Below, in pieces: positions 10,509-60,100 of a stretch of DNA of 64,000 bases. Position numbers and translations under genes: made by a program. Position 1 is the first letter of the stretch; every line of letters begins with the position of its first letter. Below the pieces are notes generated by a model, which saw only the letters and a program-made list of their open reading frames with translations, made no database searches and was not told the DNA's origin. The stretch is from Candidatus Dojkabacteria bacterium (GTDB lineage Bacteria > Patescibacteriota > Dojkabacteria > SC72), in NCBI GenBank assembly GCA_016182915.1, contig JACPFP010000002.1, forward strand, positions 230,244-294,243, written 5' to 3'.

Positions 10509-10637
10509 CAAATAATCCTCAGAATTACTTATGCCTGACAACCTCTATTTCTAGAGACATCAGGACTTAAATTCATAAAGAGCTAGAGAATGCTTACGCA
10601 CTCAAAACTGAATAGAAAATGAATATTTCAAAAAGTT

Positions 10638-13760
<3,123 letters not shown>

Positions 13761-13833
13761 GAAATTGAATTCATTTCTATTCAGTTTTTAATGTGCAAAC
13801 TAATTCTCAGTATTTCTATTTCTAGAAGTACTT

Positions 13834-23731: not shown

Positions 23732-24184
23732 CTAGTTATATCCCGTTAGGAATTTAGCCCACTGAACATAGACTGGATCAGGAGTCTCACTCTCCTTTGT
23801 TGCCAGTATCCTATCTACTTCTTCGCTTCCAATACTAATAGACTCGTCAGGGATTACAAATACCGTTTCATCCTTCTTTGCTAGGTTTAACCTATCTCTA
23901 GACTCCGTTTCAATATAGTCTGCTGTCTCGACCTCTTCTCTGCTAAGGATTAGGGAGATATTCTTCAACCTTAATCCGTCAACCTCTACCTCTGCCTGTT
24001 TTAAAATAGCAATTTTCTTTACAGTTAGGTCTGCAGATTTAGCAATGTTATACATAAGAAAGAGAGAAAGAACTAGAAGTAAAGCATTACCTATTTTAAT
24101 AAAGAAAGACCTTCTCCCTTGCCCATCAATATCTTTAGGCTTATTCAACACTTTAAAAAGAATCTTTTTGCTATTATCATCCAT
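23732..24184 (-). CDS. small bitopic membrane protein, possibly FtsL/DivIC/FtsB-like
   Basis: One TM helix (ALLLVLSLFLMYNI) followed by a short coiled-coil-like region and an acidic tail. The assignment rests on architecture only. Confidence 0.3.
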   Translation of the reverse strand: MDDNSKKILFKVLNKPKDIDGQGRRSFFIKIGNALLLVLSLFLMYNIAKSADLTVKKIAILKQAEVEVDGLRLKNISLILSREEVETADYIETESRDRLNLAKKDETVFVIPDESISIGSEEVDRILATKESETPDPVYVQWAKFLTGYN

Positions 24185-24310
24185 ATATTTAGCTTATCAA
24201 ACTCAAAATATTTATCAACCCCTTGATAGACATTATTGACCCCTATATGAGCCAGTGTTATAATCCCTATAGTAGTGCCCCAAAGGATACGTAAATTTAG
24301 AGACACACGA

Positions 24311-25201
24311 ATGAATGCAGTCAAAAACAATGAATTCTCACAGCTTCACAAAGCCTTCACAGACGAATTAAGACAGAAGAGCAGATCTGAATCTACAGTC
24401 ATAGCATATGCTAAAGACATAGAACAACTTCTCAACTTCTTTACATCTAGAGGTTTAGATTCTATTAAGAAGTCTGGTATTGAGGACTTAGAGTCATATA
24501 AAGCGTATCTACAAGGCAATAACTACACTCCTAAGAGTATCTCAAGAAAGATAAACAGTACAAGAACATTCTTTAGATTCCTTCTAGAATCAAGCATTAT
24601 TCAGGAGAACCCTTCAGACAAACTCTCACACCCTAAGTTTGAAATAAAACCACCTAGAGTTCTAACAGAGATGGAATATAGAGCGCTTAGAGATGTAAGT
24701 AGGGTTGATATAAGACTATATTCAATCATTGAACTCCTTTTACAGACAGGAATTAGAATCGGTGAGTTAGCGGCTTTAACTCTAGAAGATGTAAGAACCT
24801 CAGCAGATAGCAAGATTCCATACCTATACATTAAAGCTGCAGGGAGCCACCCAGCAAGAAAAGTTCCTCTAAATAAGTCCGCAGCAGCAGCAATAGAAGA
24901 ATATAAGAGGATTAGACCAGAAAGTGAAGACGAGACCCTATTTATAACCAAAAATGGTAGACCTCTTCTTGTTAGAAACATTAGAACAACAATAGATAAG
25001 GCATTTGAGAAGTCAGGAATTAAGAATGCGAAGGTAAATGACCTAAGAAATACATTTATTGCTCATCATCTAGCTAACGGAGTATCACTTGTAACCGTTT
25101 CTAAGCTCGTTGGACACAAGAGACTCTCTACAACAGAGAAATACCTAAATCTTCTTAATAATAAGCAGGAAGACCAGGAAAAGGACCTCAAGGAGCTTTA
25201 G
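24311..25201 (+). CDS. tyrosine site-specific recombinase, XerC/XerD-like (alternative start at 24275)
   Basis: N-terminal SAM-like core-binding domain and a C-terminal catalytic domain with conserved R...H..R and LGH...T.KYL (catalytic Tyr context). Confidence 0.75.
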   Translation: MNAVKNNEFSQLHKAFTDELRQKSRSESTVIAYAKDIEQLLNFFTSRGLDSIKKSGIEDLESYKAYLQGNNYTPKSISRKINSTRTFFRFLLESSIIQENPSDKLSHPKFEIKPPRVLTEMEYRALRDVSRVDIRLYSIIELLLQTGIRIGELAALTLEDVRTSADSKIPYLYIKAAGSHPARKVPLNKSAAAAIEEYKRIRPESEDETLFITKNGRPLLVRNIRTTIDKAFEKSGIKNAKVNDLRNTFIAHHLANGVSLVTVSKLVGHKRLSTTEKYLNLLNNKQEDQEKDLKEL

Positions 25202-26106
25202 TATTGGTATATAATTAGAGTCTTCTCTTTATCAACCCAATTTTCACCTTTAAACCTCTCTCTAACTTTTACGTTCATCTCATGTGAGAAATCAAATGTG
25301 GGTTTATAGTTATCCAACATCCATTTAGTAATTTCATCATTATCAAGGATTGGGATCATTCCATCCGTAAATAAGAGGATTCGATCCCCTGCCTCCAGAT
25401 CGACGACATGACTTTGAAAGAACTGTGTTGCCCTCTTATCACCATTAAAAATGCCAAATCCCACTTTATTTCCGGCTTCATCTTTCACATTAGGATTATT
25501 TCTTAAGACTGTACACCAGTAAATCTCCCAGTCGTGTTCAGTAATCACTTTTTTTCTTATATCATCAGGTATCTGAGCTAGGAAGATATCCTTTCCAATA
25601 AGGGTATTAGCATGCTTAAGAGCCTTCATAATCTGATACTTCATGGGATTTACTTGTTCTAACGATCCCTTGCGTAAAACATTTACATAGCAATCTTCTA
25701 ACCCACCATAGTACAATTTACCTTCAAAAATAAAGGCTCCAAATCCTACTGTTTCAGGAGTGTCGTAATTTAGGGGGTCGACAGGGTCCCTATCAAGTTT
25801 ACCGTTGAAACTGGCAATATCCTGATTTATCTTCTCAAGTATCTCGTTTACAGTTCCCTCTCCCACCTTTTTCTCAAAAATATACTCTTTAGCGTACTTA
25901 ATAAAGCCAGCACAGAATATCTCTGCCACCTCACTCTCATAGTCTTCAAAAGGAAATGTTCTTACCGCTCTAGTATGCCCTCTTAACACACCATCTGCCA
26001 CGGCAAAGATATGTAAGTCACTGTCAATGGCCCATGCGTCCCCGCTTGGAAGAAAAGATGCTTCATTTGAGGGGTTATCATGATATACAAAAATTCCTTT
26101 ATTCAT
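25198..26106 (-). CDS. PP2C/SpoIIE-like protein phosphatase (tentative)
   Basis: The motifs FAVADGV and RILLFTDGMIP resemble PP2C metal-binding motifs (xxDGHGG and xxSDGL). Confidence 0.4.
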   Translation of the reverse strand: MNKGIFVYHDNPSNEASFLPSGDAWAIDSDLHIFAVADGVLRGHTRAVRTFPFEDYESEVAEIFCAGFIKYAKEYIFEKKVGEGTVNEILEKINQDIASFNGKLDRDPVDPLNYDTPETVGFGAFIFEGKLYYGGLEDCYVNVLRKGSLEQVNPMKYQIMKALKHANTLIGKDIFLAQIPDDIRKKVITEHDWEIYWCTVLRNNPNVKDEAGNKVGFGIFNGDKRATQFFQSHVVDLEAGDRILLFTDGMIPILDNDEITKWMLDNYKPTFDFSHEMNVKVRERFKGENWVDKEKTLIIYQY

Positions 26107-26116
26107 TGTCTATGTT

Positions 26117-26527
26117 TTACTTAGAAATACCAAGCCCTACCCTGCTACGCCTAGCTTCTGCTTGAATCCAGTAATCTGAAATTCCATCCCCTATTTCAAG
26201 TAGGGTTTGAGCAAAAAGAGTCTCAGGGTGAGATTCAAGGAACGCTATATGAAGGAGCATTGCAATATTGCGCCTAGTGATATCACTTAACCCGCTAAGG
26301 TAGGCTTTAACTAATTCCTCTGCAGGGATCATATTCTGAGCAGGACTAACCTTAAGAGCCTCGACATGTAAACAGACTCTATCCTCAGTTTCTCCACTAT
26401 GTTTCGAAAAAGAAACTGCATTAGTAACAGCTGCACCTGTTTTCATCCCAACAGTTACTCGGCCACTTGCTTCATCATCCCAGCAGACAAACCCTCCATC
26501 ACTAATCTCTGCAAAAGTATCTGGCAT
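26117..26527 (-). CDS. hypothetical protein (136 aa)
   Basis: ORF packed between tRNA-Ile(UAU) and the PP2C-like gene. I recognise no motif. Confidence 0.35.
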   Translation of the reverse strand: MPDTFAEISDGGFVCWDDEASGRVTVGMKTGAAVTNAVSFSKHSGETEDRVCLHVEALKVSPAQNMIPAEELVKAYLSGLSDITRRNIAMLLHIAFLESHPETLFAQTLLEIGDGISDYWIQAEARRSRVGLGISK

Positions 26528-26548
26528 ATTTATATTTAATAATTACAA

Positions 26549-26625
26549 TGGTGGGGGTGGGCGGACTCGAACCGCCGACATCGGCTTTATAAGAACCGCG
26601 CTCTAACCACCTGAGCTACACCCCC
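26549..26625 (-). tRNA. tRNA-Ile with anticodon UAU (decodes AUA)
   Basis: The reverse complement is GGGGGTGTAGCTCAGGTGGTTAGAGCGCGGTTCTTATAAAGCCGATGTCGGCGGTTCGAGTCCGCCCACCCCCACCA. The D-arm is identical to classic tRNA-Ile. The anticodon loop is CTTATAA, so positions 34-36 are TAT. Confidence 0.75.
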
Positions 26626-26692: not shown

Positions 26693-29233
26693 CTACCTAA
26701 GAGTCAGAGGAGGTGTTCCACTCTGGTTATCAGCCAAAGAACCCTCTGTAACAGCCAATCCTGCTCTTTGATTTATCTCCTGTTCAACAACATTCACATC
26801 TCTACCATATTTCAGCCTCGACAACTCCCTAATCTTTTGGGACATCTCTTTATTTACTGGAAGGTCAAAACCAGATTCAGGATAGCTGGGACCGTAGGAA
26901 GAGTCCAAAGAGAAAGGAGCTGGATATTTACCCCCTGAGATAAGCTTCACATACCAATGTAGGTTGGCCTGATTCATAATATCGTTCGCCGTAAAGACAG
27001 GATCAAACTGTGACTCCAAGAATTTAGCATCTTCGGGACCGGTTCTTGCTATGAGAAGTGTACCAACATTTCCGAAGATAGAGTTCTTGATATGCTCCTC
27101 CATCTGCGCAATATACTGGTTCGCGACAGTGAGGTTAAGACGGTATTTTCTTGCCTCAGAAAGAATAGAAGCAAATTCTTCTGTAGCGAAGTTCTGAAAC
27201 TCATCTACATAAAAGAAGAAATCCTTTCTCTCTTCTTCAGGAATATCCTCACGGCTCAAGGCAGCAGCAACAAGCTTAGGAATGAGGATTGTCCCGAGGA
27301 ACTGCATGTTTTCCTCCCCTACCAGACCCTTAGAAAGATTTACTATCAATATCTTCTTATTATCCATAACTTCCCTCATGTTGAATGAAGATTGAGATTG
27401 CCCAATAATATTCCTAACGGCAAGGTTGGTTACAAACCTATCGAACTTTGAGGTTAGATAGCCGAGAGTCTCTGATTTATGAAAATCACTTGTTTTTGCA
27501 ATTTGGTCCGTCCAAAACCTCTTAACCATGTCATCCTTAATCAGTGGAATCCACTTCTCATCAACCCACTTCTGATCTGTAATAATCCTTAATACCTCAA
27601 CAAGGGTGGAACCTTTCTCAGACATGGCGGTAAGCATTGCATTACGAACCGTTCTTTCAAGGATAGGGCCAACAATACCCTGGTTATGGGGATCGAAGAT
27701 CTTCTTAAGAAGACCTATAAACCCGTTTACAATTCTATGCTTATCCTGCTCGTCCGAAAACTCCATCATGTTAAAACCGAAAGGCCTTTGATTATCGGAT
27801 ACATCGAAATATATAACATCCTCAGCTCTTTCATGAGGGATACGATCAAGGACCATCTGAGCAGTCTGTCCGTGAGGATCAATGAAACAAACTCCATCGC
27901 CGTTATATATATCTTGAAGGATCATCCTTACAAGAAGCCATGACTTACCTGAACCTGTCTGTCCTAATACATAGGCATGTCTTCTTCTATCGTCTCTTTG
28001 GAAACATATTCTCTTTCTATTGCCTCTAAAAACATTATCACCTAACCATATAGTGTCCTTAGAGTTTACATCTGAACTAATCCAGTTTGCAGCTGGTGCC
28101 TCTTTAGCAAGAAGCCAGTTAATATTAGGTGTTGTGATCTCTTTATTTGGAAGGTGAAAGAGACTCGCAAGCTCATCGATATTTAGGATAGATCCGCTCT
28201 TTAAAGGCATTCTTCTATAGATAACATCATTCATGAAATCCCTACCCTTGAGCTTGTTCAACTTCTCTTTTTTAAATTCATTAATACCTGGATTGGAGAA
28301 CTGATCAAAAGCACCTACGATATTATTTAGATGCATATTAGCCAAATCTGAGTCCGAAGCAGATGTAACTATACGAATAGCGGTCCTAAACCCTATCTTA
28401 GACGTTTTCTTGCTTATTGCTTGCAACTGTTCCTGACTTACACTAATTCTCTTCTTCTCTGGGTCGGAGTTCGATTCTTCAACCTTCTGTACAAACTTCC
28501 TACCGTTTTTCTGCCATTTACTCCCCGCAGGAGAGATAACCAACTGGATAAGGGCACCTTCTCCATCCTCCATTTTACTTAAGGTACTCAAAATATTTGA
28601 GAGAGGATCTCCAGAAAAGTCTTCCGCTACTTTAACCGGATAGTATGGCTCATCTGTCTGGACCAGGCTTGCATATGCAACCTTGGAATTCTCACCGAAG
28701 ATATTATATTCATCCGTCCTTATAATTTCAGCCTCCTGATAGGAGCCTAATATCTGTTTCTCAACTAGGTCAGCTAGTTTCTTAGGAGCATATACATAGA
28801 ATCGAATCTCACCCGGAAGCCCAACCATCTCAAAACTAATACTATTTCCAACGGTCAGATATTTTTGAATACCCTTCCCTGCGCCACCGATTCCATATAG
28901 GTTCGCAAACATCTTTTCCGCGACTCCAACCTCTAACTCATTCCCCCTGGGGGCTCTAACCTCAATTAATACTCCAAGTTTGCTTTTTTCATCCCTGTCT
29001 TTTCTTTTTAAAATATTTGAATAGTAGTAGAGGGCGCCAATAATTCCTCCAATAAGGAGGGAAATTAGAAGAACCCACATAAAGACAGATACAAATGTGA
29101 TATTAGAACCATCCGTCTCCCCAAGAGAATCCTGTGGATAGACCACATTCTCCCCTGGTGTTACATCACCAGGTTGTATAGGGCCAATAGTCTGAGAGTA
29201 AACAAGATTAGTATAATCTAGAGCAGTTCGCAT
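26693..29233 (-). CDS. membrane-anchored P-loop ATPase of the HerA/FtsK/VirB4/VirD4 (AAA_10/TraG-D_C-like) superfamily
   Basis: 846 aa. A single N-terminal TM helix, a ~350-aa non-ATPase region, Walker A LGQTGSGKS, then DPHGQ, Walker B FFFYVDEFQNF, and an ARKYRLNLTVANQ motif typical of HerA/VirB4/FtsK-type translocases. Confidence 0.65.
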   Translation of the reverse strand: MRTALDYTNLVYSQTIGPIQPGDVTPGENVVYPQDSLGETDGSNITFVSVFMWVLLISLLIGGIIGALYYYSNILKRKDRDEKSKLGVLIEVRAPRGNELEVGVAEKMFANLYGIGGAGKGIQKYLTVGNSISFEMVGLPGEIRFYVYAPKKLADLVEKQILGSYQEAEIIRTDEYNIFGENSKVAYASLVQTDEPYYPVKVAEDFSGDPLSNILSTLSKMEDGEGALIQLVISPAGSKWQKNGRKFVQKVEESNSDPEKKRISVSQEQLQAISKKTSKIGFRTAIRIVTSASDSDLANMHLNNIVGAFDQFSNPGINEFKKEKLNKLKGRDFMNDVIYRRMPLKSGSILNIDELASLFHLPNKEITTPNINWLLAKEAPAANWISSDVNSKDTIWLGDNVFRGNRKRICFQRDDRRRHAYVLGQTGSGKSWLLVRMILQDIYNGDGVCFIDPHGQTAQMVLDRIPHERAEDVIYFDVSDNQRPFGFNMMEFSDEQDKHRIVNGFIGLLKKIFDPHNQGIVGPILERTVRNAMLTAMSEKGSTLVEVLRIITDQKWVDEKWIPLIKDDMVKRFWTDQIAKTSDFHKSETLGYLTSKFDRFVTNLAVRNIIGQSQSSFNMREVMDNKKILIVNLSKGLVGEENMQFLGTILIPKLVAAALSREDIPEEERKDFFFYVDEFQNFATEEFASILSEARKYRLNLTVANQYIAQMEEHIKNSIFGNVGTLLIARTGPEDAKFLESQFDPVFTANDIMNQANLHWYVKLISGGKYPAPFSLDSSYGPSYPESGFDLPVNKEMSQKIRELSRLKYGRDVNVVEQEINQRAGLAVTEGSLADNQSGTPPLTLR

Positions 29234-29286: not shown

Positions 29287-29889
29287 CTATTCTCCGAAGA
29301 TAGCAAAGATCTTCTTAATAAGAGTTGCAGCCCATGTTCGACCGTCGTTAATATCTCCCTGCTCAGAAATATTACTTGCGTCATTGGTAAGGGCATCATC
29401 TACCTGATAACCAAATAGCTTGAAAGTTTGGGTATTAGCAGTGGTTGCATTCTCCTCTTCAACACGAGATTTCTCCTCTGCACTAAGTTTATTGCCATCC
29501 TCAACCCCACTTTCAGTAAGTTTAATCTCATTCTCTTTCACAGTCTCAACCAGAGTTGCAAACTCCTCACTCTCCTTACTTGCATTAACCTGCTCCTCAA
29601 CCTTTGGAGCATCAACTAAAGGTGCAGATGAAACCTCGGAAGATACCTCCAGGGAAGGTAGCTCATCTAAAGACTCAACAGGCTGTTCTGCAGTTGGCTG
29701 ATTGGAATTATATTTTTCTAATATACCATTCTGCCTAAGTATCTCTTTTTTCTGATCTAAGGATAGTGTTGACCATACTGAGTCGGGAATTAGTCCAACG
29801 AGCTCGGTAGGTAAAGTGCGAATCCAGCCTGCATTTTCTAAGGCCGCACTCTTTGTTTCTAGGTTGTTTACTACAGGGGTATCTTGCAT
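29287..29889 (-). CDS. hypothetical acidic protein (200 aa)
   Basis: Low-complexity, E/S-rich middle region with no recognisable motif. Tightly packed between smpB and the ATPase. Confidence 0.35.
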   Translation of the reverse strand: MQDTPVVNNLETKSAALENAGWIRTLPTELVGLIPDSVWSTLSLDQKKEILRQNGILEKYNSNQPTAEQPVESLDELPSLEVSSEVSSAPLVDAPKVEEQVNASKESEEFATLVETVKENEIKLTESGVEDGNKLSAEEKSRVEEENATTANTQTFKLFGYQVDDALTNDASNISEQGDINDGRTWAATLIKKIFAIFGE

Positions 29890-30353: not shown

Positions 30354-32693
30354 TTACTTTTGAATAACGACTCTCCTGATAACGGTTCCATCCAAAATAT
30401 ACATATATCTCTCCTGATAGTCGGTAACTAGGTCCTGAACATCTTTAAAAACATCATCCCTATCTCCCTGATAGCGATACTCATTAACACGAAGGAGTTC
30501 ATTTGGATGTCTCGAATCCCCGATTGCCTCCTTAGGCTTCTCGAAAGATATGATTCTTGGAGAATCTCCACCTTCAAATATATACATAAGGTTATCCAAA
30601 GTTCCTCCTGTATGTCCTGCACTTGCACCACCTACAGCATTCAAACCCTCTGCACTAAGTGGGAGTTTTTGAGGATTATCTCCTGCGGAGTATCTTTCCA
30701 CCTCATTATCAACTCCCGTTACTACATAAATAGCAATATCACCGAAGAAATCTCTAGCTGAGTCAAAAGTTTCAGAACTTATATGGGCAAAAGGTAGTGT
30801 GTATCCGTTACCTGTGAAGTTTGATCTATATATTGCCTTGTTTGTGGGACTTAATAGGTATACATGATCATTCGGTGTGAATACCGCAAACTCGGAGACA
30901 TCATTAATTCCAAGGTCATCTGCCCCAAGTCCAGTAAGAGACTCAAAGTCCAGGTTTCCCAACTTACTATCAAACTGTGATCTGATCACTCCTGAAATTT
31001 CATCAAAGACATAAACACCATGAGTACCTATATCAATATATTTGGGTGACTTCACCAATCCCCTCTTGTCAGGAATCTTAACTGCACTCTTATCGAAAAT
31101 ATTTATTCTATATACAGCTTTCAATCCATTATCAACCACAAAGAGGGACTCATTCTGATAGTCGTCCTTGTAGACAGTCATATCCGTAGGCTGAGATTTC
31201 GACTCACCCTTTTTATCAAACTCAATACGTGTACTTAAAAATATCTCCAGGTTACCATTTTCTTCAGAAACCCAAACTCTCTTTGCAACTCTATCATCAA
31301 TTTTCCCTAACGATTCCTTAAGATCTGAGAGTTTCTTTTGGTCATCAAAGGATAACTTTTTACCCTCTACTTTTTGTAACTCTGCTGTCGCCTGTGTAAG
31401 GTAGCCGGAAGCCTGCTCTGTGTCACCCGGAAGATATGACTCAGCCTGTTTAATATAGTTCTCTACAACATCAAATACCTCAGCGGCAACTCTATGAAGC
31501 TCTCTAGCCTCTTTTGCTTTAATACTGAGCTGGATTCCCCCTAGAAGCGCTATCACGAGAAGCACCCCTAAAATCAAGGTTCCAAACCTCTTCCCTCGCA
31601 CTGAAGACTCTCTGTATCCATCAATTTTCATTCCGTACGCGGAACTACCTTTAGAGAGCCTCATTGCAGATAACTTTGACTTTATCCTTTTATACCAAAC
31701 TTGCCTACCATATTTATCATCTACAAATCCCCAGAAGGATCCTCCGAACTTGTGTAGAATCTTCTCTAACCTACTACTTAAAGGCATCATGAAGTTTGAA
31801 AGTTTATTCCATATCTCTAACCATGCGCTTTTTATCTTACCGGTCGTGCTGTTAAACCATATTACAAAAGTTGCCCACTTCTCTTTGAAAGTACTCTTCC
31901 GTACCTCAGATTCAATTTCTTTATTCTCAGGAACAGAAGGAACTTCCTCTGGTGGTTGAATTATTTCATACTCCTTATGAATAAGCTCTGTTGCTTGAGA
32001 CGTTACCTCAGAATCATACCCAGGTTCAGGATCTAAAGGGGCCTCTTCAATCTCTTCTATATCTTCAAAATCCTCTCCAATCTCCGACCTTGAAAGGAGG
32101 AGAACCCCTTGCCCTTTTTTCAAGGTATCATTTATCTCTAACAAGACTGATGATAGTTCGTCGCCCTTCATTCGTAGAAGAGTCTCACTGAATAGCATTG
32201 GAGAAGATATTATCAGGATGTCTTCCTGGCCCAATGCAAAACTTAATGCCATTACTTTATTCTTCTTTAGTACCTCAGACACATTAACGATATCTCCCTC
32301 CTTATGTACAAAGATCTCCTGTTCTCCAAAAACTCCTAAGAATGCGGTAGCTTCTTTTATCACCACTATGGCAAAACTTATATCAATTCCACCCTCCTCT
32401 ACCTCTTTATCGTTTTTCAACATTTCAAGAAGCTTCTTTGAACCTGCCGATATAGATTCTTTGACAGAATCAATAATAGAGCCCGATGAACCTGAGTACG
32501 TTTCAAGGATTGCATCCCAGACAAACTTAGATGCACGACTGGCATACCCTTCTGGGGTTTTAGAGACTGTAATTAGTGCATACATCTCTCCAACAGAGTT
32601 CCCTCCGTAATTTTCAGGAGTATATTTATAAACACTCGTTATAGACTGAGTATCTACCTCTTGTGAGATATATCTCTTTACAAAGATGGGCAT
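30354..32693 (-). CDS. large bitopic membrane protein: ~370-aa cytoplasmic N-terminal region, one TM, ~400-aa extracytoplasmic C-terminal domain
   Basis: A single central TM helix (TLILGVLLVIALLGGIQLSI). An acidic linker precedes it. The C-terminal half is rich in predicted beta strands. No catalytic motif recognised. Confidence 0.45.
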   Translation of the reverse strand: MPIFVKRYISQEVDTQSITSVYKYTPENYGGNSVGEMYALITVSKTPEGYASRASKFVWDAILETYSGSSGSIIDSVKESISAGSKKLLEMLKNDKEVEEGGIDISFAIVVIKEATAFLGVFGEQEIFVHKEGDIVNVSEVLKKNKVMALSFALGQEDILIISSPMLFSETLLRMKGDELSSVLLEINDTLKKGQGVLLLSRSEIGEDFEDIEEIEEAPLDPEPGYDSEVTSQATELIHKEYEIIQPPEEVPSVPENKEIESEVRKSTFKEKWATFVIWFNSTTGKIKSAWLEIWNKLSNFMMPLSSRLEKILHKFGGSFWGFVDDKYGRQVWYKRIKSKLSAMRLSKGSSAYGMKIDGYRESSVRGKRFGTLILGVLLVIALLGGIQLSIKAKEARELHRVAAEVFDVVENYIKQAESYLPGDTEQASGYLTQATAELQKVEGKKLSFDDQKKLSDLKESLGKIDDRVAKRVWVSEENGNLEIFLSTRIEFDKKGESKSQPTDMTVYKDDYQNESLFVVDNGLKAVYRINIFDKSAVKIPDKRGLVKSPKYIDIGTHGVYVFDEISGVIRSQFDSKLGNLDFESLTGLGADDLGINDVSEFAVFTPNDHVYLLSPTNKAIYRSNFTGNGYTLPFAHISSETFDSARDFFGDIAIYVVTGVDNEVERYSAGDNPQKLPLSAEGLNAVGGASAGHTGGTLDNLMYIFEGGDSPRIISFEKPKEAIGDSRHPNELLRVNEYRYQGDRDDVFKDVQDLVTDYQERYMYILDGTVIRRVVIQK

Positions 32694-32694
32694 T

Positions 32695-32946
32695 TTAACC
32701 TACAAGAATTAATATTACACAGAAAAGACTCCCTACAACCGCAACAAGAAGGTGTAGATATGATGCAAAAAGAACCTTTTTATTCGATGAGCTTTTAACT
32801 GTGTCATTTAAAATTCTCACTCTAATGGTGAGAAGGAGGGAGTATATTACATAGCCAAAAATTACAACTAGGAAGAGAAGTTTGAAGATACCTCCTGTAC
32901 TCTGAAACGTGAAATTGATTGTGTTTATTCCTTCTAAAAAGTCCAT
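32695..32946 (-). CDS. small two-TM membrane protein
   Basis: 83 aa with two hydrophobic helices. Start and stop are coupled to flanking genes (32946 is shared with the upstream bPH gene). Confidence 0.35.
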   Translation of the reverse strand: MDFLEGINTINFTFQSTGGIFKLLFLVVIFGYVIYSLLLTIRVRILNDTVKSSSNKKVLFASYLHLLVAVVGSLFCVILILVG

Positions 32947-33563
32947 TATATGTGTCCTTTCTTTTTCATTTCAAGTAAGTCGAGGAGAGTATCCTGTATA
33001 TCCCTTGGCCTTGGTACACCTGTAAATTCAAACTCCGGCTTTGAACCCGCGGTCTGGATATATACATCTCCATAGTCAAAAATACTACTTAATACTCCAG
33101 CAGGTGAATGCGATACATCCTCAATTTTATCCAAGTGGGCTTCTGAGAATCTATGAAAAAGAATATTATTAAAATCTACATCAACTATCCTGATATCCGT
33201 AATTATATTTACGGAATAGTACCATTTAAAATATGTATCACATGCTACAGTAAATGCCAGTAGAAGAAACAACAACCCAACTCCAAAGTTATATATAGGA
33301 CTGAAATCTCCTGTACCGCTGAATGCAGCAAAGAAGAGAAGTGGAGTTAAGAGAAGTCCGATAATAGCTAGATACCTTGGGATGAAAACTGCAGGGTGCT
33401 TCCTAACAATCAATACTACACTCTCTCCTTTATCCTGACCACTAAACGAAACAGTATCAGGAAACACACAGAAACTACCTGTGTTGTTTATAGAGTCAAC
33501 AGGAGACAGCTTTACTAGAAAAGACTTTTTCCCTTTTAAAAACTTTTTAGGTATTTTTCTCAT
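32946..33563 (-). CDS. membrane protein with a bacterial PH (bPH_2, YdbS/YdbT-like) domain
   Basis: Two N-terminal TM helices, then a ~90-aa domain with a bPH_2-like pattern (...YSVNIITDIRIVDVDF...GDVYIQTAG). Confidence 0.5.
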   Translation of the reverse strand: MRKIPKKFLKGKKSFLVKLSPVDSINNTGSFCVFPDTVSFSGQDKGESVVLIVRKHPAVFIPRYLAIIGLLLTPLLFFAAFSGTGDFSPIYNFGVGLLFLLLAFTVACDTYFKWYYSVNIITDIRIVDVDFNNILFHRFSEAHLDKIEDVSHSPAGVLSSIFDYGDVYIQTAGSKPEFEFTGVPRPRDIQDTLLDLLEMKKKGHI

Positions 33564-33674
33564 ACTAGTTCAAGATAACATAAATACAGTACTAGGACAA
33601 GAATAATTAGGTTGCATATCTTAATAGTAGTGATATACTTTTTAACATAATAATTTTATATATAAGACACTCAA

Positions 33675-34106
33675 ATGCTAGATGTACAAGAAAAAAGACG
33701 AATCACTGATGCCCTCGTACACCTCACAGATAGTCATACCACAGAACCTCTATCTTTAGGCGAAGACGAAGAGATATCAGGCCTTAAAATATCAAACTTC
33801 AGACAAGGGTTTGAGTCAGCAACATCAGAAAGTATCACTATACTTATGGAACTAATAGTGGAAGGTGGTAGCCAAGAGAGGCAGTATGCTGAGGAAAAGG
33901 ACTTACAAAGACTATGCGGGTTTATATGTGGGCTAAGATTTAGAGGAAATACCTATTTGGCAGACGAAATTTGGGGAAGGCTCAATCAAAGCGGAGCACT
34001 TGACGCTGATCAGGACGCAGCCGAAGCAAGTGTAGTTCAAATAGTGTTCGAGGAATATTTACAAGAGCAAGGAATACTGGCTAAAGAAGTCTGCAATCTT
34101 TGGTAA
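33675..34106 (+). CDS. hypothetical acidic protein (143 aa). This is the only plus-strand gene in this block.
   Basis: The ORF is convergent with the SpoIID-like gene. No motif recognised. Confidence 0.3.
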   Translation: MLDVQEKRRITDALVHLTDSHTTEPLSLGEDEEISGLKISNFRQGFESATSESITILMELIVEGGSQERQYAEEKDLQRLCGFICGLRFRGNTYLADEIWGRLNQSGALDADQDAAEASVVQIVFEEYLQEQGILAKEVCNLW

Positions 34107-34109
34107 TCA

Positions 34110-36002
34110 CTATTTCTTCTCTATATTTATAAAGGTAACGTTATTACCCTGAGGTGGAATCTGTAAATATCCAGGTGCTCTTAAGTTGTAGACCGCTTCA
34201 AAACTGGCTCCTGGAATAGTTATAGTTCCCCTATTTGTACTGAACAGAATCGATGAAGTCTGACCCTGACTAGAGAACGACGATACCACCGAGTACACCT
34301 CTTTAACTGGATTGTTAAGTAATCCAGCCATCTGATCCTTATTGTACGGATTACCTGCAATTCCAGAGATAGGGCAATCAGAAATTGTAACAGGGAGGAT
34401 TCTTGAATAATCTACACTACCTTTTAAACCACTCCCCTCGTTCACCAACCATACATTGATAATATCCGCCATTTCTTTATTTGATAGATAGTTTCTCCCC
34501 TTGTTATCGATATTAGTTACGTCCTTCTTTGAAGAGTTACAGACCCCACCATTAAGAAGATTATACCAAGTTTTATAGAACCAAGGGCTATTTCCATATT
34601 TGGATCCTTCATACGCATTCTCCGTCCAACTTCCGCTCCCACCCTGCTTATTCGTAGTATCCCATCCTGAGGTATTTAAATATCCTCCAGAGGTTGAAGA
34701 AAATTGGAAATTACCTGTTCCGCCACTCAGAACCCACTTACTCGTATAGTCCACAGCTTGCTGCCATGCACTCGCATTTTTCTCCTTTTTTACCACCTGA
34801 CAGCTCTGACTCGGACAGATATATACATGACCATTACATTTTGCACTGTGTGTTTGAATATATCTAAGGGCGTAGCTTCTTGCAGAGACAACCTGTGCTC
34901 TCAAGACCGCAGTTGGCCAGCTACTTGGAACCTCGTAGAGCCTCTTGAGATACTCATCTACAGTAAAAGCCTGACAATTAAAGGCCTGCCCGTATTCATT
35001 TGTACCGTTTACATAGATTAATGATGGTACCGCATAGCTTTTATTCAAAGTCTCAGTGCCATAGTAAGCCTTGAGGATTTGTTCCGCACTCTGCCCTGCC
35101 TTCGCCCGACCATATGCTCCATACTGGCTCATACCGTTTCTATGGGTATAGGCACCCAGGGAAAATACTGCAAAGCTACCCGATTTCGCATTTGATACAA
35201 AGCCTGTCTTTGAGGAAAGGTTCTCAACGCTACCAGGTACATCTCCAACTCCAATAATCCCTCCCGATGCCTTTGCTAGAAGTATCGCCTCCTGTAGCTT
35301 TGAAATTTCCCCTTTTAGTGACGATATATCACTTCCCAGCCTCGAAGAAAGACTCTTTTTTGATGCCGCCTGAGAAGCCAAAGCGACTTTCTGTGATATG
35401 AGAGACTCTTTAGACTTCTCTAATCCCTCCTTTTCCTCTTCTAAGGACCCTTTCTCTCTCTCAACTTCAAGTTTCTCCTGTTTGAGTTGAGCAAAATTCT
35501 GAGAAAGAAGCTTTAATTTACCTACATAGCCAAATCCACTTAATTTCCGAAGAAATAGACCACGCAGAAGATCATCAGCACTTCTATTCGCAAAAAGGTA
35601 CTCTATGAATCCGAAGCGTGAAGATTTGTATAAGTTGGAAGCAATATCATCCAGAGCTTTCTGTTCCTTCTCCAGCTCACTCTGTTTTTGATTGATTACC
35701 TTCTCTTTCTGCTTAATCTCGTTAGATGCAGACTTTATATAGGTATCAATCTTATCAACCTGAGCACTCATCAGTTCTATCTTCTCATCAATACTCACAC
35801 TGCTCTTGTTAATTTCCTCTATCTCCCTCTTTATTTTATCCAAAGTACTCTCTTTCTCTTTAATCTCCTGGTTCTTCTTCTCTACCTCACTCTCTAAGTC
35901 ACCAACATCCTGTGAAAAAGCAGGGAGAGTGAAAAAGACCAAGGCATATACAACGAAGAGGAGAGAAAAAAGGATAATTTTTGGGGCATTTCTAAATTCC
36001 AT
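34110..36002 (-). CDS. secreted or membrane-anchored coiled-coil protein with a SpoIID/LytB-type peptidoglycan lytic domain
   Basis: N-terminal signal/TM, then ~250 aa of heptad-rich E/K coiled coil. The SpoIID/LytB signatures follow: GMSQYGAYGRA, and AVLRAQVVSARSYAL...CNGHVYICPSQSCQVV. An unknown ~200-aa C-terminal domain completes the protein. Confidence 0.65.
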   Translation of the reverse strand: MEFRNAPKIILFSLLFVVYALVFFTLPAFSQDVGDLESEVEKKNQEIKEKESTLDKIKREIEEINKSSVSIDEKIELMSAQVDKIDTYIKSASNEIKQKEKVINQKQSELEKEQKALDDIASNLYKSSRFGFIEYLFANRSADDLLRGLFLRKLSGFGYVGKLKLLSQNFAQLKQEKLEVEREKGSLEEEKEGLEKSKESLISQKVALASQAASKKSLSSRLGSDISSLKGEISKLQEAILLAKASGGIIGVGDVPGSVENLSSKTGFVSNAKSGSFAVFSLGAYTHRNGMSQYGAYGRAKAGQSAEQILKAYYGTETLNKSYAVPSLIYVNGTNEYGQAFNCQAFTVDEYLKRLYEVPSSWPTAVLRAQVVSARSYALRYIQTHSAKCNGHVYICPSQSCQVVKKEKNASAWQQAVDYTSKWVLSGGTGNFQFSSTSGGYLNTSGWDTTNKQGGSGSWTENAYEGSKYGNSPWFYKTWYNLLNGGVCNSSKKDVTNIDNKGRNYLSNKEMADIINVWLVNEGSGLKGSVDYSRILPVTISDCPISGIAGNPYNKDQMAGLLNNPVKEVYSVVSSFSSQGQTSSILFSTNRGTITIPGASFEAVYNLRAPGYLQIPPQGNNVTFINIEKK

Positions 36003-36026
36003 ACCCTATTATACAGAAAGAGTGAA

Positions 36027-36350
36027 TTAGTTTCCTATGAAGTCCAGAACTCCTTTTAGAATTGCTCTGAAAAGGAAGAGAAATACCAAACCAACAATTG
36101 CCCATGTTAGAGTTCCTTGAGCCTGTTTTAATTTTCCAGGATCACCAGACGATAGCATCCACATATATCCACCGTACACAATCATGATTAAAGAGATTAG
36201 GCCACCAATTGGAAGGATAAGCTCGGAAACACTATCAACAATCCCACCAATCTCCTCTAATCTTGGAGGAGCGGCAGCAAGTACCTTTCGGGGAAGAAGA
36301 GCCATTACAGCCAGAGAGAGAGAGGTTAATGCGGTTTTAATTTTTTTCAT
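36027..36350 (-). CDS. VirB2/TrbC-like two-helix pilin paralog A
   Basis: Signal peptide (MKKIKTALTSLSLAVMALLP...A), then hydrophobic helix 1 ending YGGYMWMLSSGDPGKLKQAQ, then hydrophobic helix 2. Confidence 0.5.
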   Translation of the reverse strand: MKKIKTALTSLSLAVMALLPRKVLAAAPPRLEEIGGIVDSVSELILPIGGLISLIMIVYGGYMWMLSSGDPGKLKQAQGTLTWAIVGLVFLFLFRAILKGVLDFIGN

Positions 36351-36352
36351 AT

Positions 36353-36625
36353 TTATAGTTTTCCTAGTACATTATCTAATATAAATCTGACAATTAGAGG
36401 AGAGATAAAGACAACTATCAAACCTACCAAAGTATAAATAATACTTTTTTGGGCCTTCTCTGCCTTTCCACTATCCCCTGCTGAAAGTATATACTGAAAA
36501 CCTGAAAAAACCAATGAACCAACTGCAATGAGAGCCGAAATAGCAATAATGAGATTAATGGTACCTTGAACCATTTCTATGAGAGAGCTATAACCTGTAC
36601 TATTTATAATAGATATATCGAACAT
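36353..36625 (-). CDS. VirB2/TrbC-like two-helix pilin paralog B
   Basis: Shares the family core with the other four: ...VFSGFQYILSAGDSGKAEKAQKS..., then a second hydrophobic helix. Confidence 0.5.
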   Translation of the reverse strand: MFDISIINSTGYSSLIEMVQGTINLIIAISALIAVGSLVFSGFQYILSAGDSGKAEKAQKSIIYTLVGLIVVFISPLIVRFILDNVLGKL

Positions 36626-36682
36626 AAGGTACGAGATAATATAAAAAAGGCAGGAGCGAACTCCTGCCTTCCAAAGTCTTAA

Positions 36683-37051
36683 TTAAGCTTTCAAAAGCTC
36701 CTTAAGGACGAAGTTTACAATCAATACTGATATGAAACAAATAACCAAACCAATGATTGCATAAGTAATACCTTTTGTAGCTTTCTCAATCTTTCCATCA
36801 TCACCAGATGCAACGATATACTGGATACCACTGTATACAAGAACACCAACAGAGATAAGTGCGGCAAGAGCAATAATCAAGTTCAATGCATTCTGAATGA
36901 ATCCGATTAAATTTCCACCACTGGTAGAACCATTAACTCCCCCGATAAAATCACCTGCACTAGCTGCAAGAGTGGCTGAAGCAAAATACAAAGCAGATCC
37001 AAGTGATGCTGCGTATGTCCCGACCTTCGCGATTACATTACTAACTTTCAT
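36683..37051 (-). CDS. VirB2/TrbC-like two-helix pilin paralog C
   Basis: Core ...VYSGIQYIVASGDDGKIEKATKG... flanked by two hydrophobic helices. Longer Gly/Ser-rich N-terminal region. Confidence 0.5.
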   Translation of the reverse strand: MKVSNVIAKVGTYAASLGSALYFASATLAASAGDFIGGVNGSTSGGNLIGFIQNALNLIIALAALISVGVLVYSGIQYIVASGDDGKIEKATKGITYAIIGLVICFISVLIVNFVLKELLKA

Positions 37052-37142
37052 TGTTATTTAAGAGTAATTAAATTAATAGCTTATAACTACGGACATTATA
37101 TTATATGTGAAATCAATCTGCAATAGGATAAACACCAAATAT

Positions 37143-37478
37143 CTATCTTAAGAACTCAGTAATTAAGAACATTACAATCATGCGTGCTAAAAAGACTATT
37201 ATCATTCCAACAATTGAATTAGTTATAATACTTTGCGCCTGTTCTATCTTATCTCCGTCTCCTGCAGCGGTAATCATTGTAATACCTCCATATACAAGTA
37301 AAGCAACTAGAACCAACGCAGACAGGTTTACAGCACCATTAACGAGTTCAGTAGCCTTACCAACGGCTCCCCCAACAGTAGTAAAGGAATCACTTCCCCA
37401 AGGATTGGAAATTCCAAACCAGCTCGCAAACATATATCCTTTTTCTTTAACCTTCTCACTAATCTTTTTTAGATTCAT
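37143..37478 (-). CDS. VirB2/TrbC-like two-helix pilin paralog D
   Basis: Core ...VYGGITMITAAGDGDKIEQAQS... flanked by two hydrophobic helices. Confidence 0.5.
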   Translation of the reverse strand: MNLKKISEKVKEKGYMFASWFGISNPWGSDSFTTVGGAVGKATELVNGAVNLSALVLVALLVYGGITMITAAGDGDKIEQAQSIITNSIVGMIIVFLARMIVMFLITEFLR

Positions 37479-37496
37479 ATGTATTTATAAAATAGT

Positions 37497-37850
37497 TTAA
37501 GGATTTATCCCAGGGATATTTAACGTGTTCTTTATAAGAAGCAAGATAGCAACAGAAAGAGCAATTAACGCAAACCCTATCACTGCGTTAGTAACCACCT
37601 CCCTAGCCTCTTGCAATTTTTCTGGGTCGCCTTGGCTTGTAATCATGTTATAGCCAGCATAAGCAAAAAGTCCAATTGCGCTTAATACACCAACAGGGAT
37701 AGATAATTGGACAAGCGCATTTACTAGTGAAGGGATATCCTGTGAGTTAACTACATCAGTTACATTACCAGATATCGCATTACTCAAAGCATCTGCATAT
37801 GCTGGAGTTGAAATTGCATGAAAGAATTTTTCTAAAAGACTCTGTATCAT
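37497..37850 (-). CDS. VirB2/TrbC-like two-helix pilin paralog E
   Basis: Probable signal peptide (..STPAYA|D), core ...AYAGYNMITSQGDPEKLQEAREV..., then a second hydrophobic helix. Confidence 0.5.
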   Translation of the reverse strand: MIQSLLEKFFHAISTPAYADALSNAISGNVTDVVNSQDIPSLVNALVQLSIPVGVLSAIGLFAYAGYNMITSQGDPEKLQEAREVVTNAVIGFALIALSVAILLLIKNTLNIPGINP

Positions 37851-57177: not shown

Positions 57178-60100
57178 CTACTTTTTCCTTACTACAATAT
57201 TTTTAGTTATAGTTTTTTCTCCCTTTGCCGTGATATTAACAACACTAGATCCCCCCTCAAACTTCATCGCTTTATAATCGCTGGAGATAACAACAAGTTC
57301 GTATGCTCCGGGATATATTACAAACCTATACTTTCCATTCTTATCTGTAATACGCTTCGATACAAACCTATCAAACTTCATCTCTTTAATAGCAATCTCT
57401 ACATTCTCAATCGGTTTTCCCTTGATATCCGTAACAATTCCATATGATGCTTCCTCACCAAACATAGATTTATAGAGCATGTAGAAGGCCGGAATATAGA
57501 ACGCTATTACAATCCAATTAGTGAGAGATGGGAACTTTACAACGGTATATACACCAAGAATTATTCCACCCACGAAGATTACTGCGTGGAGCATTTTAAG
57601 AATAAGGTTTATACTAGTTCTTGCAGATACGGAAAGGGCTTTGAATCTATCAACTTTAGTTGGATCGATAGGGATAAGTACCCGAACCTCTTCCCTCTTA
57701 CTTAGGCTGAACAACTCACCTTTGTAGATAGGTTCAAGAGGATAATCAACTACACCCTTAACAATTTCTGTTGGATACTTAAATCCGCCTTTTTTAACAA
57801 GTAATTTATATTTTCCTTTCGGGAGTTCAACATTGAAAGATCCGTATACATCTGTTACATCTGTCCACACAAGCTTATCGTTAACATCATATATTCTGAC
57901 TATTGCTCTTGAAACTGGTTCTTTTGTAACCGAGTCATATACATATCCATATGGTTTACCTTTCTTTCTAAAGCCAAGAAGAGAAAGCATACTTAAAAAT
58001 AGTTGCGTTAAGAAGTATGGGACAGAACTAAATCCTCCACCGATAGCTGCTAGTCCAACTGTGACCGTTGCCGCAGTGGCCGTAGTTGTAACAGCTGTTA
58101 ACTGAGGTTCTGGAAGGTCCCCGACAACACTATTATCTATAGCTATCTTAACGCCATCAATAGCTTCTGTTGCATTAGTTTCTGCAACCGTTGTTAATAC
58201 AGTGTTAACAACATCATTCACAACTTTAATTGGTGTATTTATAACAACAGGGGGAGTGATTGGTTCTTCTTCCTCTTTTTCAGGATCTTCAACGGTAGGT
58301 TCTTTCACCTCGCCTCCTGTATCAACGGTTTCACCTAATCCTCCCGTTCCTGTTAAACCTGAGACAACCCAATAGCTAACACCATCAATTACTGAAGTAG
58401 ACACTGTAACCAATGACCCATCAATATCAATAGTCTGAGGATATGGACCAGCAAATACCACACTACCTGCACAATCACTATTTACTTCATCTATTGATTC
58501 CGCTTTTGTACACAATTTAAACCGATTACTCTCCTCCTTTGGAACATACATAGTATAGGTTCCCTTTAATCCTGCAGTTTCAGGGAGTTTAACAACAACT
58601 TTGCTACCCTCAGCCACGATAACAGCCGAACTCCAGTCTCTATTCTGTGTAAACTCAATCGGGACATCTGCAACAATTGTGTTGTTTCTAAGAACTCTAA
58701 CCTCCTGTACACCCCTCTGACCTCCTAAATCAGTACTTGGATCTACATTCAGACTGCTCTTTAGCCTGAGAAGTACTCCAACAGGAATATTCTCTATAAT
58801 TGCATTTGTACCATATTGAGTTCTTGCCCCCAAACCTGTAACAATTCCTGCCCCATTTCTTGCATTAATTCGGAAGGAGTAGTCTGAAACTGGTGCTAAA
58901 CCGCTTAACAGAACCCCTATATTCCCACCGAATTCTGAATATGTTCCCCAAACAGGTTCTGTTGTTAGAAGACCTGTTCTGAAATCTACAAATCTTCCTT
59001 GAGACTCCTCATATATAGAGTACTGAACACTTGAATCATTAGCGTTTCTAAATATTCTTAGGGTTAAAGACCTCAAAGTTACAGTATTAATACTCTCAAC
59101 TCCAGGAATGCTGGCTAATGTGTACGAAACAAAGCTTGAGGAGGTACCAGATTCAAGAAGATTACCATTTCTAGATTTAGCAATAAATTCATGCCTGGCT
59201 CCTGGAACAAGTCCGTTTATTGTCATACCATTGAGACCTCCGAAATCAGCAAATTTACCCCACTTAACATCAGATACTAGAGTTCCTGTTCTAGGATCTA
59301 CAGACTTTCCACTTACAATATCCATTATACTGTAGTCCGTATTCGCAGGATTCTGGTTTGCACTAACCTTTATAAGGAGAGAGGTTGGAGTATTAAGAGT
59401 AACTCCAACTCTTCCTGGAGTATTTGAAAGAGTATAAATCTTAGAACTTGGAGATGGCGTAGACTCTACATTCTGTCCATTACGGGATATTGTATGGAAT
59501 TCATACTCTGTATTTATTCCCAAACCACTTATACTAAAACCTGTTCCCCTCCCCCAATTAGTATACGTTCCCCAAACAGCATCCGTCTCCCATAAACCAT
59601 TTGTGTAGTTAAAATATTTAGAAGTTGTGACATCCTTGAAAGCAAAGGTTGTAACCTCTGGATTACCTCCATTATCAATTACAACCTTAATTCTAGATTC
59701 TGAAAGAGGAGTTAGAGCCGGCGAAGAGGTCTGAACGGAAAGGGTATAAATAGTCACAATATCTGATGTAGAAGTAATCACGTCTTCACCATCTCTAGCA
59801 ACAACTGCAAATTGATACTCTGCATTAGCAAAGAGTTCAGAGACAAAGAAACCAGAGGCCCCTCCTAATTCATCTAACGTATACCAGGAATCTGCAGAGA
59901 GAAGACGCCCTCTTCCTGACCTAAAATCTCCAACTTTCAATCCTGAAATGACCTCCCTCACTTGGTATTGAGTATTTGATGGATTACCGCTAGCGTTTAC
60001 AACAAGCTTTATAGCCGTTGAACTAGACGCCTCAGAGCTTGAGAACTGTGGTGTGGCAGCAGGCGTATATTTGGAAGCCGTTGAACTGTAATCTCCCCTC

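Follow-up and report, generated by a model that had tools for sequence, protein, structure and literature searches.

To which branch of the FtsK/HerA/VirB4/VirD4 translocases does a membrane-anchored ATPase of Candidatus Dojkabacteria belong, and what does it drive? The gene lies at positions 26693 to 29233 (minus strand) of a 64,000-nt stretch of contig JACPFP010000002.1 (GenBank assembly GCA_016182915.1), referred to below as the window. The initial annotation, made from the sequence alone, assigned the product correctly to this P-loop translocase superfamily and left the subfamily open between a coupling protein, a VirB3-VirB4-type fusion and a HerA-like protein, to be decided by profile hidden Markov models (HMMs) and a predicted structure of the N-terminal domain, both of which were run. 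As the best explanation of the results as a whole, the gene is probably, if by no means certainly, a chromosomal Patescibacteria member of a distinct VirB4/VirD4 branch and encodes a motor linked to a type IV secretion system (T4SS). A housekeeping role in DNA handling is the main rival.

Protein anatomy and family assignment

The open reading frame (ORF) of 846 aa with an ATG start was confirmed by ORF listing and translation. The same protein, at 100% identity, is in NCBI as MBI2356714.1, titled [quoted passage not shown], so the gene already carries an annotation. The features of the gene and its product are the following.

26693..29233, minus strand: complete ORF of a DUF8128-type VirB4/VirD4-superfamily ATPase, 846 aa (identity to MBI2356714.1)
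29018..29098, minus strand: single N-terminal transmembrane (TM) helix, residues ~46-72 (hydropathy scan and flank charges)
28148..28978, minus strand: predicted cytoplasmic DUF8128 (PF26449) domain, residues ~86-362 (AlphaFold2 [AF2] model, Foldseek, PF26449 annotation and invariant columns)
26864..28054, minus strand: C-terminal RecA-like nucleotide-binding domain (NBD) of putative coupling-protein type, residues ~394-790 (Pfam and PDB sequence matches)
27941..27964, minus strand: Walker A GQTGSGKS, residues 424-431 (motif scan and conservation)
27404..27751, minus strand: all-alpha insertion in the NBD, residues ~495-610 (AF2 secondary structure and TrwB_AAD_bind span)
27188..27208, minus strand: Walker B VDEFQNF, residues 676-682 (motif scan and conservation)

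The ORF, the single N-terminal TM helix and all four motifs quoted in the initial annotation proved to be real, the remaining two motifs being DPHGQ at residue 452 and ARKYRLNLTVANQ at residue 694. The TM helix is the only hydrophobic segment of the protein and forms part of one long helix (residues 47-85) in the full-length AF2 model. Its N-side flank is acidic without K/R and its C-side flank carries 6 K/R, which predicts an N-out/C-in orientation with a short N-terminus outside and the rest of the protein in the cytoplasm. The NBD insertion is modeled as seven helices (495-513, 523-536, 544-552, 554-564, 568-578, 583-601, and 604-610) at the position of the all-alpha domain of type IV coupling proteins (T4CPs) or the helical bundle of VirB4, and the TrwB_AAD_bind match covers residues 409-735. 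Across a set of 53 diverse family sequences with 26% mean column identity, residues G424, G429, K430, D677, E678, Q680, Q706, and Q710 of the NBD were invariant, as were E135 and the H360-x-P362 motif closing DUF8128 in the N-terminal half. The ORF is not a chance reading frame, given its invariant catalytic residues and the 1578 homologues that the scored candidates contain at E ≤ 1e-3, and the conservation of these residues supports an active enzyme.

In the ATPase half, the Pfam models T4SS-DNA_transf (31.7 bits, cut-off 20.1), TrwB_AAD_bind (27.1 bits, cut-off 20.5), TraG-D_C (26.3 bits, cut-off 22), and DUF87 scored above their gathering scores. The VirB4 and FtsK models did not reach threshold: AAA_10 scored 12.9 bits against a cut-off of 27.5 and FtsK_SpoIIIE 13.6 bits against 24, CagE_TrbE_VirB had no match, and Ftsk_gamma was absent at E ≤ 1. 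A best match to FtsK/SpoIIIE with its gamma domain, which the initial annotation would have taken as a sign of a housekeeping protein, was thus not found. Among the NCBIfam models, the VirD4-like CD1115 (1.9e-12) and SXT TraD ranked ahead of the VirB4-like CD1110 (3.2e-7), with all matches far from the equivalog cut-offs (46.8 versus 250 for CD1115). PDB searches with the single protein and with the 53-member family profile returned DotL and TrwB only, followed by weak HerA, and no VirB4 or FtsK chains.

Comparison of the ATPase fold gave the highest scores for the VirB4 C-terminal domain (4ag5, 28.5), the DptH C-domain (27.8) and TrwB (26.9), followed by HerA (24.0), DotL (23.4), Cag-beta (22.5), FtsK (17.3), and TcpA (17.3). 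These scores exclude an FtsK-type motor and leave the VirB4 C-terminal domain and T4CPs inseparable by fold. On a family-specific HMM, various DUF8128 members scored 148-295 bits, compared with 35 bits for TrwB, ~11 for TraD and PcfC, 27 for the VirB4 of the actinobacterium Embleya, 0.5-4 for PrgJ, TraC, and TrwK, ~11 for TcpA, and 8.5 for E. coli FtsK; this spread indicates a separate branch leaning towards the coupling proteins. An FtsK orthologue was rejected on the sub-threshold FtsK_SpoIIIE score, the missing Ftsk_gamma and the low fold and family-HMM scores. For the ATPase half, sequence comparison favours a T4CP over a VirB4.

The ~350-aa domain called unrecognised in the initial annotation had indeed no match for residues ~80-400 in the Pfam scan, but PF26449 (DUF8128) is precomputed for the identical protein and for 120 of 120 homologues among the matches listed, so that "unknown function" rather than "unrecognised" is the proper term. 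No paper naming DUF8128 was found in the literature search. The AF2 model of residues 76-408 had a predicted local distance difference test (pLDDT) score of 76 and a predicted TM-score (pTM) of 0.79. In a Foldseek search of the PDB with this model, the top 14 matches were all TrwK chains (E 5e-8 to 1e-4; query-normalised TM-scores 0.41-0.51). The structural neighbours comprised the VirB4 N-terminal domain, EccE, and VAO-type subdomains, and no HAS barrels were among them; at the sequence level, neither Pfam nor the family HMM gave a VirB4 match for this domain. As modeled, DUF8128 has the fold of the N-terminal domain of VirB4 (TrwK). Together with the coupling-type sequence of the ATPase, this suggests that the protein joins a VirB4-type N-terminal domain to a motor of the coupling-protein type.

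The resulting architecture differs from both parent types. Like the canonical T4CPs (VirD4/TrwB/TraD/DotL), which are its best Pfam, NCBIfam and PDB sequence matches, the window protein has a membrane-tethered P-loop NBD with an all-alpha insertion and a TrwB-like fold; in the canonical T4CPs, however, a two-helix membrane domain leads straight into the NBD, whereas here one TM helix is followed by a ~330-aa VirB4-NTD-like domain. With VirB4/TrwK/TraC it shares the two-domain architecture and the modeled fold of the N-terminal domain. It lacks a sequence-level match to VirB4 families and has a TM helix of its own, whereas VirB4 relies on VirB3 for the membrane. The same composition recurs through the family: the N-terminal domain alone matched 2022 representatives of 50%-identity clusters, always at residues ~40-400 of 800-1100-aa proteins or in fragments, and T4CP-type Pfam domains were C-terminal to it in 9 of 9 distant full-length members.

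Relatives on plasmids, in archaea and in phages

Searches with tblastn matched the ATPase half to 389 plasmid records, from Streptomyces (106), Bacillus (95), and Staphylococcus (33) and also from haloarchaea and Sulfolobus, and the N-terminal domain to 43 plasmid records from haloarchaea and Bacillus. Gene order was read in selected examples, namely the Embleya, Bacillus subtilis and Haladaptatus plasmids and the phages CampHawk and G. On the Embleya linear plasmid, the order is a VirB6/TrbL-like gene, PrgI, a VirB4-like gene (AAA_10/TraC), an 812-aa DUF8128 ATPase that aligns to residues 82-779 of the window protein (E 8e-60), Replic_Relax and NlpC/P60. A 65-kb B. subtilis plasmid carries a 913-aa member, then a Replic_Relax protein, then TcpE and a VirB4-like ATPase. 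On the Haladaptatus plasmid (L085, 8923-12852), DUF8128 is a gene of its own (350 aa) that lies just upstream of a T4CP-like gene of 930 aa, with a VirB4-like gene on its other side, and this haloarchaeal pair is a split version of the bacterial fusion.

Phage proteins belong to the family as well, with a near-full-length match to PHROGs phrog_5156 (1.3e-89). Both domains were found in gp156 of phage G (N-domain 3e-39, C-domain 5e-60), with the VirB4-like gp155 directly upstream, and in CampHawk_129 of an SPO1-like phage (N-domain 2e-27, C-domain 7e-36), with CampHawk_128 directly downstream, a Replic_Relax protein annotated "replication initiation by nicking". The N-terminal TM helix is absent from the B. 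subtilis plasmid copy and from both phage copies examined. A conjugation-like module of a soluble DUF8128 ATPase with a nicking protein or a VirB4-like ATPase thus sits in lytic Bacillus phages (CampHawk, L092 3743-7280; phage G, L091 2189-6331). Literature searches on Replic_Relax, coupling proteins and SPO1 brought no useful results.

On the family HMMs, the plasmid and phage relatives scored 1e-18 to 1e-115 and the VirB4 proteins of the same clusters 8e-8 or worse. The recurrence of a module of VirB4-like ATPase, DUF8128 ATPase and nickase, whole or in part, places the DUF8128 protein in the slot of the coupling protein. The coupling-protein option of the initial annotation therefore fits best, both by sequence and by the position of the relatives outside CPR (Candidate Phyla Radiation, Patescibacteria) beside a nickase and a separate VirB4. 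The option of a VirB3-VirB4 fusion is wrong in that form: the ATPase is not a VirB4 by sequence and the relatives coexist with a true VirB4. It was right only in so far as the N-terminal domain is predicted to have the VirB4-NTD fold.

All 43 plasmid records matching the N-terminal domain are typed as "non-mobilizable" in PLSDB (MOB-suite typing). Two examined plasmids typed in this way (Embleya, L083, and B. subtilis, L084) carry T4SS-type clusters with VirB6/PrgI/VirB4-like genes, a DUF8128 ATPase and Replic_Relax, so part of plasmid mobility may be overlooked.

Distribution and gene context in Patescibacteria

In a collection with one genome per GTDB species, the family was found at at least 600 places, and the best 80 of these were almost all in CPR, namely in Dojka-, Levy-, Davies-, Curtiss-, Woese-, Roizman-, and Shapirobacteria, WWE3, Magasanik-, Uhr-, Doudna-, Berkel-, Falkow-, and Staskawiczbacteria, and Saccharibacteria. 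The context was counted at 81 related loci, with the neighbouring genes grouped by all-vs-all clustering and iterated HMMs over their ORFs. The CPR copies are solitary, nearly universal and set among housekeeping genes, with tandem paralogues at several of the loci. The most frequent neighbours were an xerC-like recombinase and divIC (20 loci each), dnaX (13), an unknown 779-aa membrane protein (12), ribonucleotide reductase (11), smpB (10), and ftsH (9), and no FtsK gene was found near the ATPase at any of the 81 loci.

These counts agree with a survey of 5,713 T4CP homologues in 2,918 Patescibacteria genomes, of which 148 were near virB4 and for which exaptation was held possible (Quinonero-Coronel et al. 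2025, PMC12102498). The "T4CP homologues" of that survey resemble the present family in being chromosomal VirD4-type matches, about two per genome and rarely near virB4, with tandem or dispersed paralogues; the N-terminal domain, its VirB4-like fold and the plasmid and phage relatives were left undescribed there.

The window itself is chromosomal, with a complete 16S-tRNA-tRNA-23S-5S rRNA operon, several tRNAs and housekeeping genes that include rho, clp, rpsA, polA, ftsH, efp, smpB, and addA, and no relaxase, Replic_Relax, VirB4, or FtsK gene was found within its 64 kb. The neighbours of the ATPase gene that bear on its function are the following.

23732-24184: divIC, downstream near the xerC-like gene (neighbourhood counts, 20 of 81 loci)
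24275..25201, plus strand: XerC/D-like tyrosine recombinase, conserved downstream neighbour in 20 of 81 loci (Pfam Phage_integrase and SAM-like domains)
29287..29889, minus strand: small acidic ORF, 200 aa, directly upstream of the ATPase (position conserved in Dojkabacteria-type loci)
30354..32693, minus strand: 779-aa protein with one central TM helix and no family match, the most frequent upstream neighbour (12 of 81 loci)
36027..37850, minus strand: array of five VirB2-like T4SS pilin genes (PF18895 T4SS_pilin, 2e-7 to 2e-12, all five)

The small ORF directly upstream is a candidate partner protein of the ATPase. It had no Pfam, PADLOC or PHROG match, and its type is kept in position in the Dojkabacteria-type group 3 (L001, L003, L005, L006, and L015). 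A small ORF on the same strand precedes 70 of 86 family ORFs in the CPR loci, in lineage-specific sequence families. In hhalign comparisons, groups 1 and 5 were clearly related (95% probability) and the Dojkabacteria group weakly (17-19%), so that homology across lineages is established only for groups 1 and 5.

The transposon sequencing (Tn-seq) table of the Saccharibacteria strain Southlakia epibionticum ML1 (Wang et al. 2023, PMC10633639) contains two genes with the architecture of the family, SEML1_0142 and SEML1_0293. At all three time points SEML1_0142, of 1019 aa with a P-loop at 381-800, was scored ES (essential), and the small upstream gene SEML1_0141 (139 aa, no domain) was scored GD/ES/ES, hence as growth-defective or essential. 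The gene order of SEML1_0138-0145 is matched in a complete Saccharibacteria genome by a comM-like gene, a small ORF, the ATPase, two minus-strand genes, gyrB, and gyrA. The syntenic protein of 1048 aa carries PF26449 and matched the family HMMs at 2e-89 (N-domain) and 3e-165 (C-domain), and the 148-aa ORF upstream of it belongs to the Saccharibacteria small-ORF family. By this shared gene order and these scores, SEML1_0142 is a member of the family by synteny.

The pilin array lies ~7 kb upstream of the ATPase on the same strand. It closes a same-strand block (30354-37850, minus strand) of five divergent pilins, a 630-aa coiled-coil/SpoIID-domain protein, a bPH_2 membrane protein, DUF5657, and the 779-aa single-TM protein, whose gene order recurs at L001, L002, and L015 and, in part, in Levybacteria; the block may be an outlying T4SS/pilus island. 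On the other side (24275-26625), a tRNA gene directly downstream of the ATPase is followed by two unknown ORFs (136 aa and a PP2C-like one of 302 aa) and the convergent xerC-like recombinase. The closely related locus L001 has another gene, of 408 aa, in the matching interval, which marks a small variable spot.

Elsewhere in the window, the 23S rRNA match (10626-13762, minus strand) spans 3137 nt against a 2925-nt model, and the ~200 nt extra are possibly an insertion or intron; insertions and introns are common in CPR rRNA genes. A giant ORF of 2235 aa with fibronectin type III repeats (57178-63885, minus strand) probably encodes a surface protein or adhesin.

Proposed function, alternatives and significance

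Under the T4SS-linked reading, the ATPase would form a hexamer tethered to the membrane and act as an ATP-driven translocase or as a receptor for the substrate, and its VirB4-like N-terminal domain would stand in for the two-helix membrane domain of the canonical coupling proteins. By analogy, this domain may dock the motor on the inner-membrane platform of the T4SS, with VirB3/PrgI-, VirB8-, VirB6-, or VirB4-like partners. The motor could then power substrate delivery through the pilus-bearing patescibacterial T4SS, the substrate in the plasmid and phage relatives presumably being DNA.

Several observations weigh against this reading. The proposed docking is drawn purely by analogy with the contacts of the TrwK N-terminal domain in the R388 structures, and the connection of the CPR ATPase to the patescibacterial T4SS is likewise inferred. 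Canonical T4CPs score weakly on the family HMM, and structure does not separate them from the VirB4 C-terminal domain. The link to the neighbouring pilin set is weaker than the initial annotation implied: only 3 of 81 loci (L001, L002, and L015) have a pilin array close to the ATPase; these three are mutually related, two being labelled Dojkabacteria and one auto-labelled Saccharibacteria, and the association is lineage-specific. A VirB4-like gene was within 10 kb at 1 of the 81 CPR loci (L030), in line with the 148 of 5,713 homologues near virB4 in PMC12102498, and no relaxase or Replic_Relax gene was nearby at these loci; the T4CP-typical linkage to a relaxase or nickase and a T4SS cluster is absent in CPR and present in the plasmid and phage relatives. 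The paralogue SEML1_0293 (921 aa, TrwB_AAD_bind from residue 402) was scored NE throughout (PMC10633639), and the window gene may correspond either to this dispensable gene or to the essential SEML1_0142. PMC12102498 cites the ML1 t4cp as non-essential, whereas in the Tn-seq table SEML1_0293 is non-essential and SEML1_0142 essential. Lastly, the essential Saccharibacteria T4SS was described without a recognisable coupling protein (Wang et al., PMC10633639).

The alternative that survives best, although it is rather unlikely, is a T4SS-independent housekeeping DNA translocase exapted for an FtsK-like role at the membrane or septum, in segregation, Xer dimer resolution or replication-linked transport. 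The purely housekeeping surroundings suit such a role, as do the adjacent xerC-like recombinase, divIC and dnaX at the loci counted above, gyrB and gyrA beside the Saccharibacteria orthologue, and the essentiality of SEML1_0142, which is like that of core genes. Beside the phage and plasmid relatives stands a nickase whose annotation points to replication initiation, and exaptation was kept as a possibility in PMC12102498. The protein is of the same superfamily as FtsK/SpoIIIE and TcpA, resembles them as a membrane-anchored and presumably hexameric motor, and has a Xer recombinase adjacent in some lineages, but its Pfam score is below threshold, the gamma domain is missing, and its anchor is a single TM helix and not the four-helix anchor of FtsK. 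The adjacency to xer and divIC, at 20-21 loci, is found nearly all among the best-matching L001-L043, in loci labelled Dojkabacteria, Levy-, Woese-, and Daviesbacteria, and may be inherited gene order. Furthermore, ftsK is annotated in Saccharibacteria TM7x, and FtsK/TcpA-type "t4cp2" matches occur in CPR genomes.

It is very improbable that the gene is the VirB4 of its genome, as a divergent orthologue possibly equivalent to a VirB3-VirB4 fusion. The layout of membrane element, N-terminal domain of modeled VirB4-NTD fold and C-terminal ATPase is VirB4-like, but CagE_TrbE_VirB does not match, AAA_10 stays far below its cut-off, and the family profile gives TrwK, TraC, and PrgJ next to no score. 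A bona fide VirB4 shares the cluster with the relatives of Embleya, Haladaptatus and phage G, and on the B. subtilis plasmid one lies a few genes off, so the relatives are not the sole VirB4-type ATPase there. In CPR, a real VirB4 at L030 (11480-13234, minus strand) is outside the DUF8128 family and matches the Embleya plasmid VirB4 at 1.6e-112, a sequence score that fits an origin of the CPR T4SS in monoderms (MPF-FATA). Patescibacterial virB4 has been reported with TrsD and PrgI near dnaA, and no VirB3-VirB4 fusions have been reported, which also weighs against a VirB4 orthologue.

Equally improbable is the ATPase of an anti-phage defence system, HerA-like or similar to mad8 of MADS, an option raised by the initial annotation that did not hold. 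PADLOC returned mad8 at 2.7e-18 over the ATPase core only, plus weaker HerA models. The N-terminal domain is not a HAS barrel, which sets the protein apart from HerA and HerA-like defence ATPases. Its gene is surrounded by smpB, a tRNA gene, efp, ftsH, and polA and has no mad, dnd, NurA, Sir2 or nuclease partner in the vicinity, and it is phylum-wide and syntenic, unlike patchy defence islands. A defence island was rejected on the PADLOC results for the neighbours, as the four flanking unknown proteins had no match.

Relatives on plasmids and phages, and the tRNA gene and tyrosine recombinase just downstream, would suit a relic of an integrated conjugative element or prophage that no longer serves the cell. 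This reading is the least probable of all and was rejected, being largely refuted by the intact frame with invariant catalytic residues, the matching housekeeping synteny in many CPR lineages, the absence of a compositional break, and the essential Saccharibacteria member.

The T4SS-linked motor of a distinct branch thus stays the favoured reading. A bolder version is put forward tentatively, as a minority possibility. The DUF8128 ATPases, with a VirB4-type N-terminal domain retained on a motor of the coupling type, would be a third, so far undescribed branch of VirB4/VirD4, ancestral-like or intermediate in architecture. The essential pilus-bearing T4SS would then have its "missing" coupling ATPase in the essential, TM-anchored CPR member and the small protein encoded upstream; alternatively, the two would make up an import/export motor that the epibiotic lifestyle requires.

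An annotation of the gene existed before, and earlier work recorded its family in bulk. Within the literature searched, the novelty lies in the modeled VirB4-type fold of DUF8128, in a distinct VirB4/VirD4 hybrid branch whose members occur on CPR chromosomes, on plasmids of monoderms and archaea, and in large Bacillus phages, and in the link to an essential Saccharibacteria gene. The family is also informative on the divergence of VirB4 and VirD4. For epibiotic growth, Patescibacteria need an unusual T4SS, which was reported without a recognisable coupling protein and relaxase. A near-universal, TM-anchored, coupling-type ATPase with a VirB4-like domain, an essential member in Saccharibacteria and nickase-linked relatives is a concrete candidate for the missing motor.

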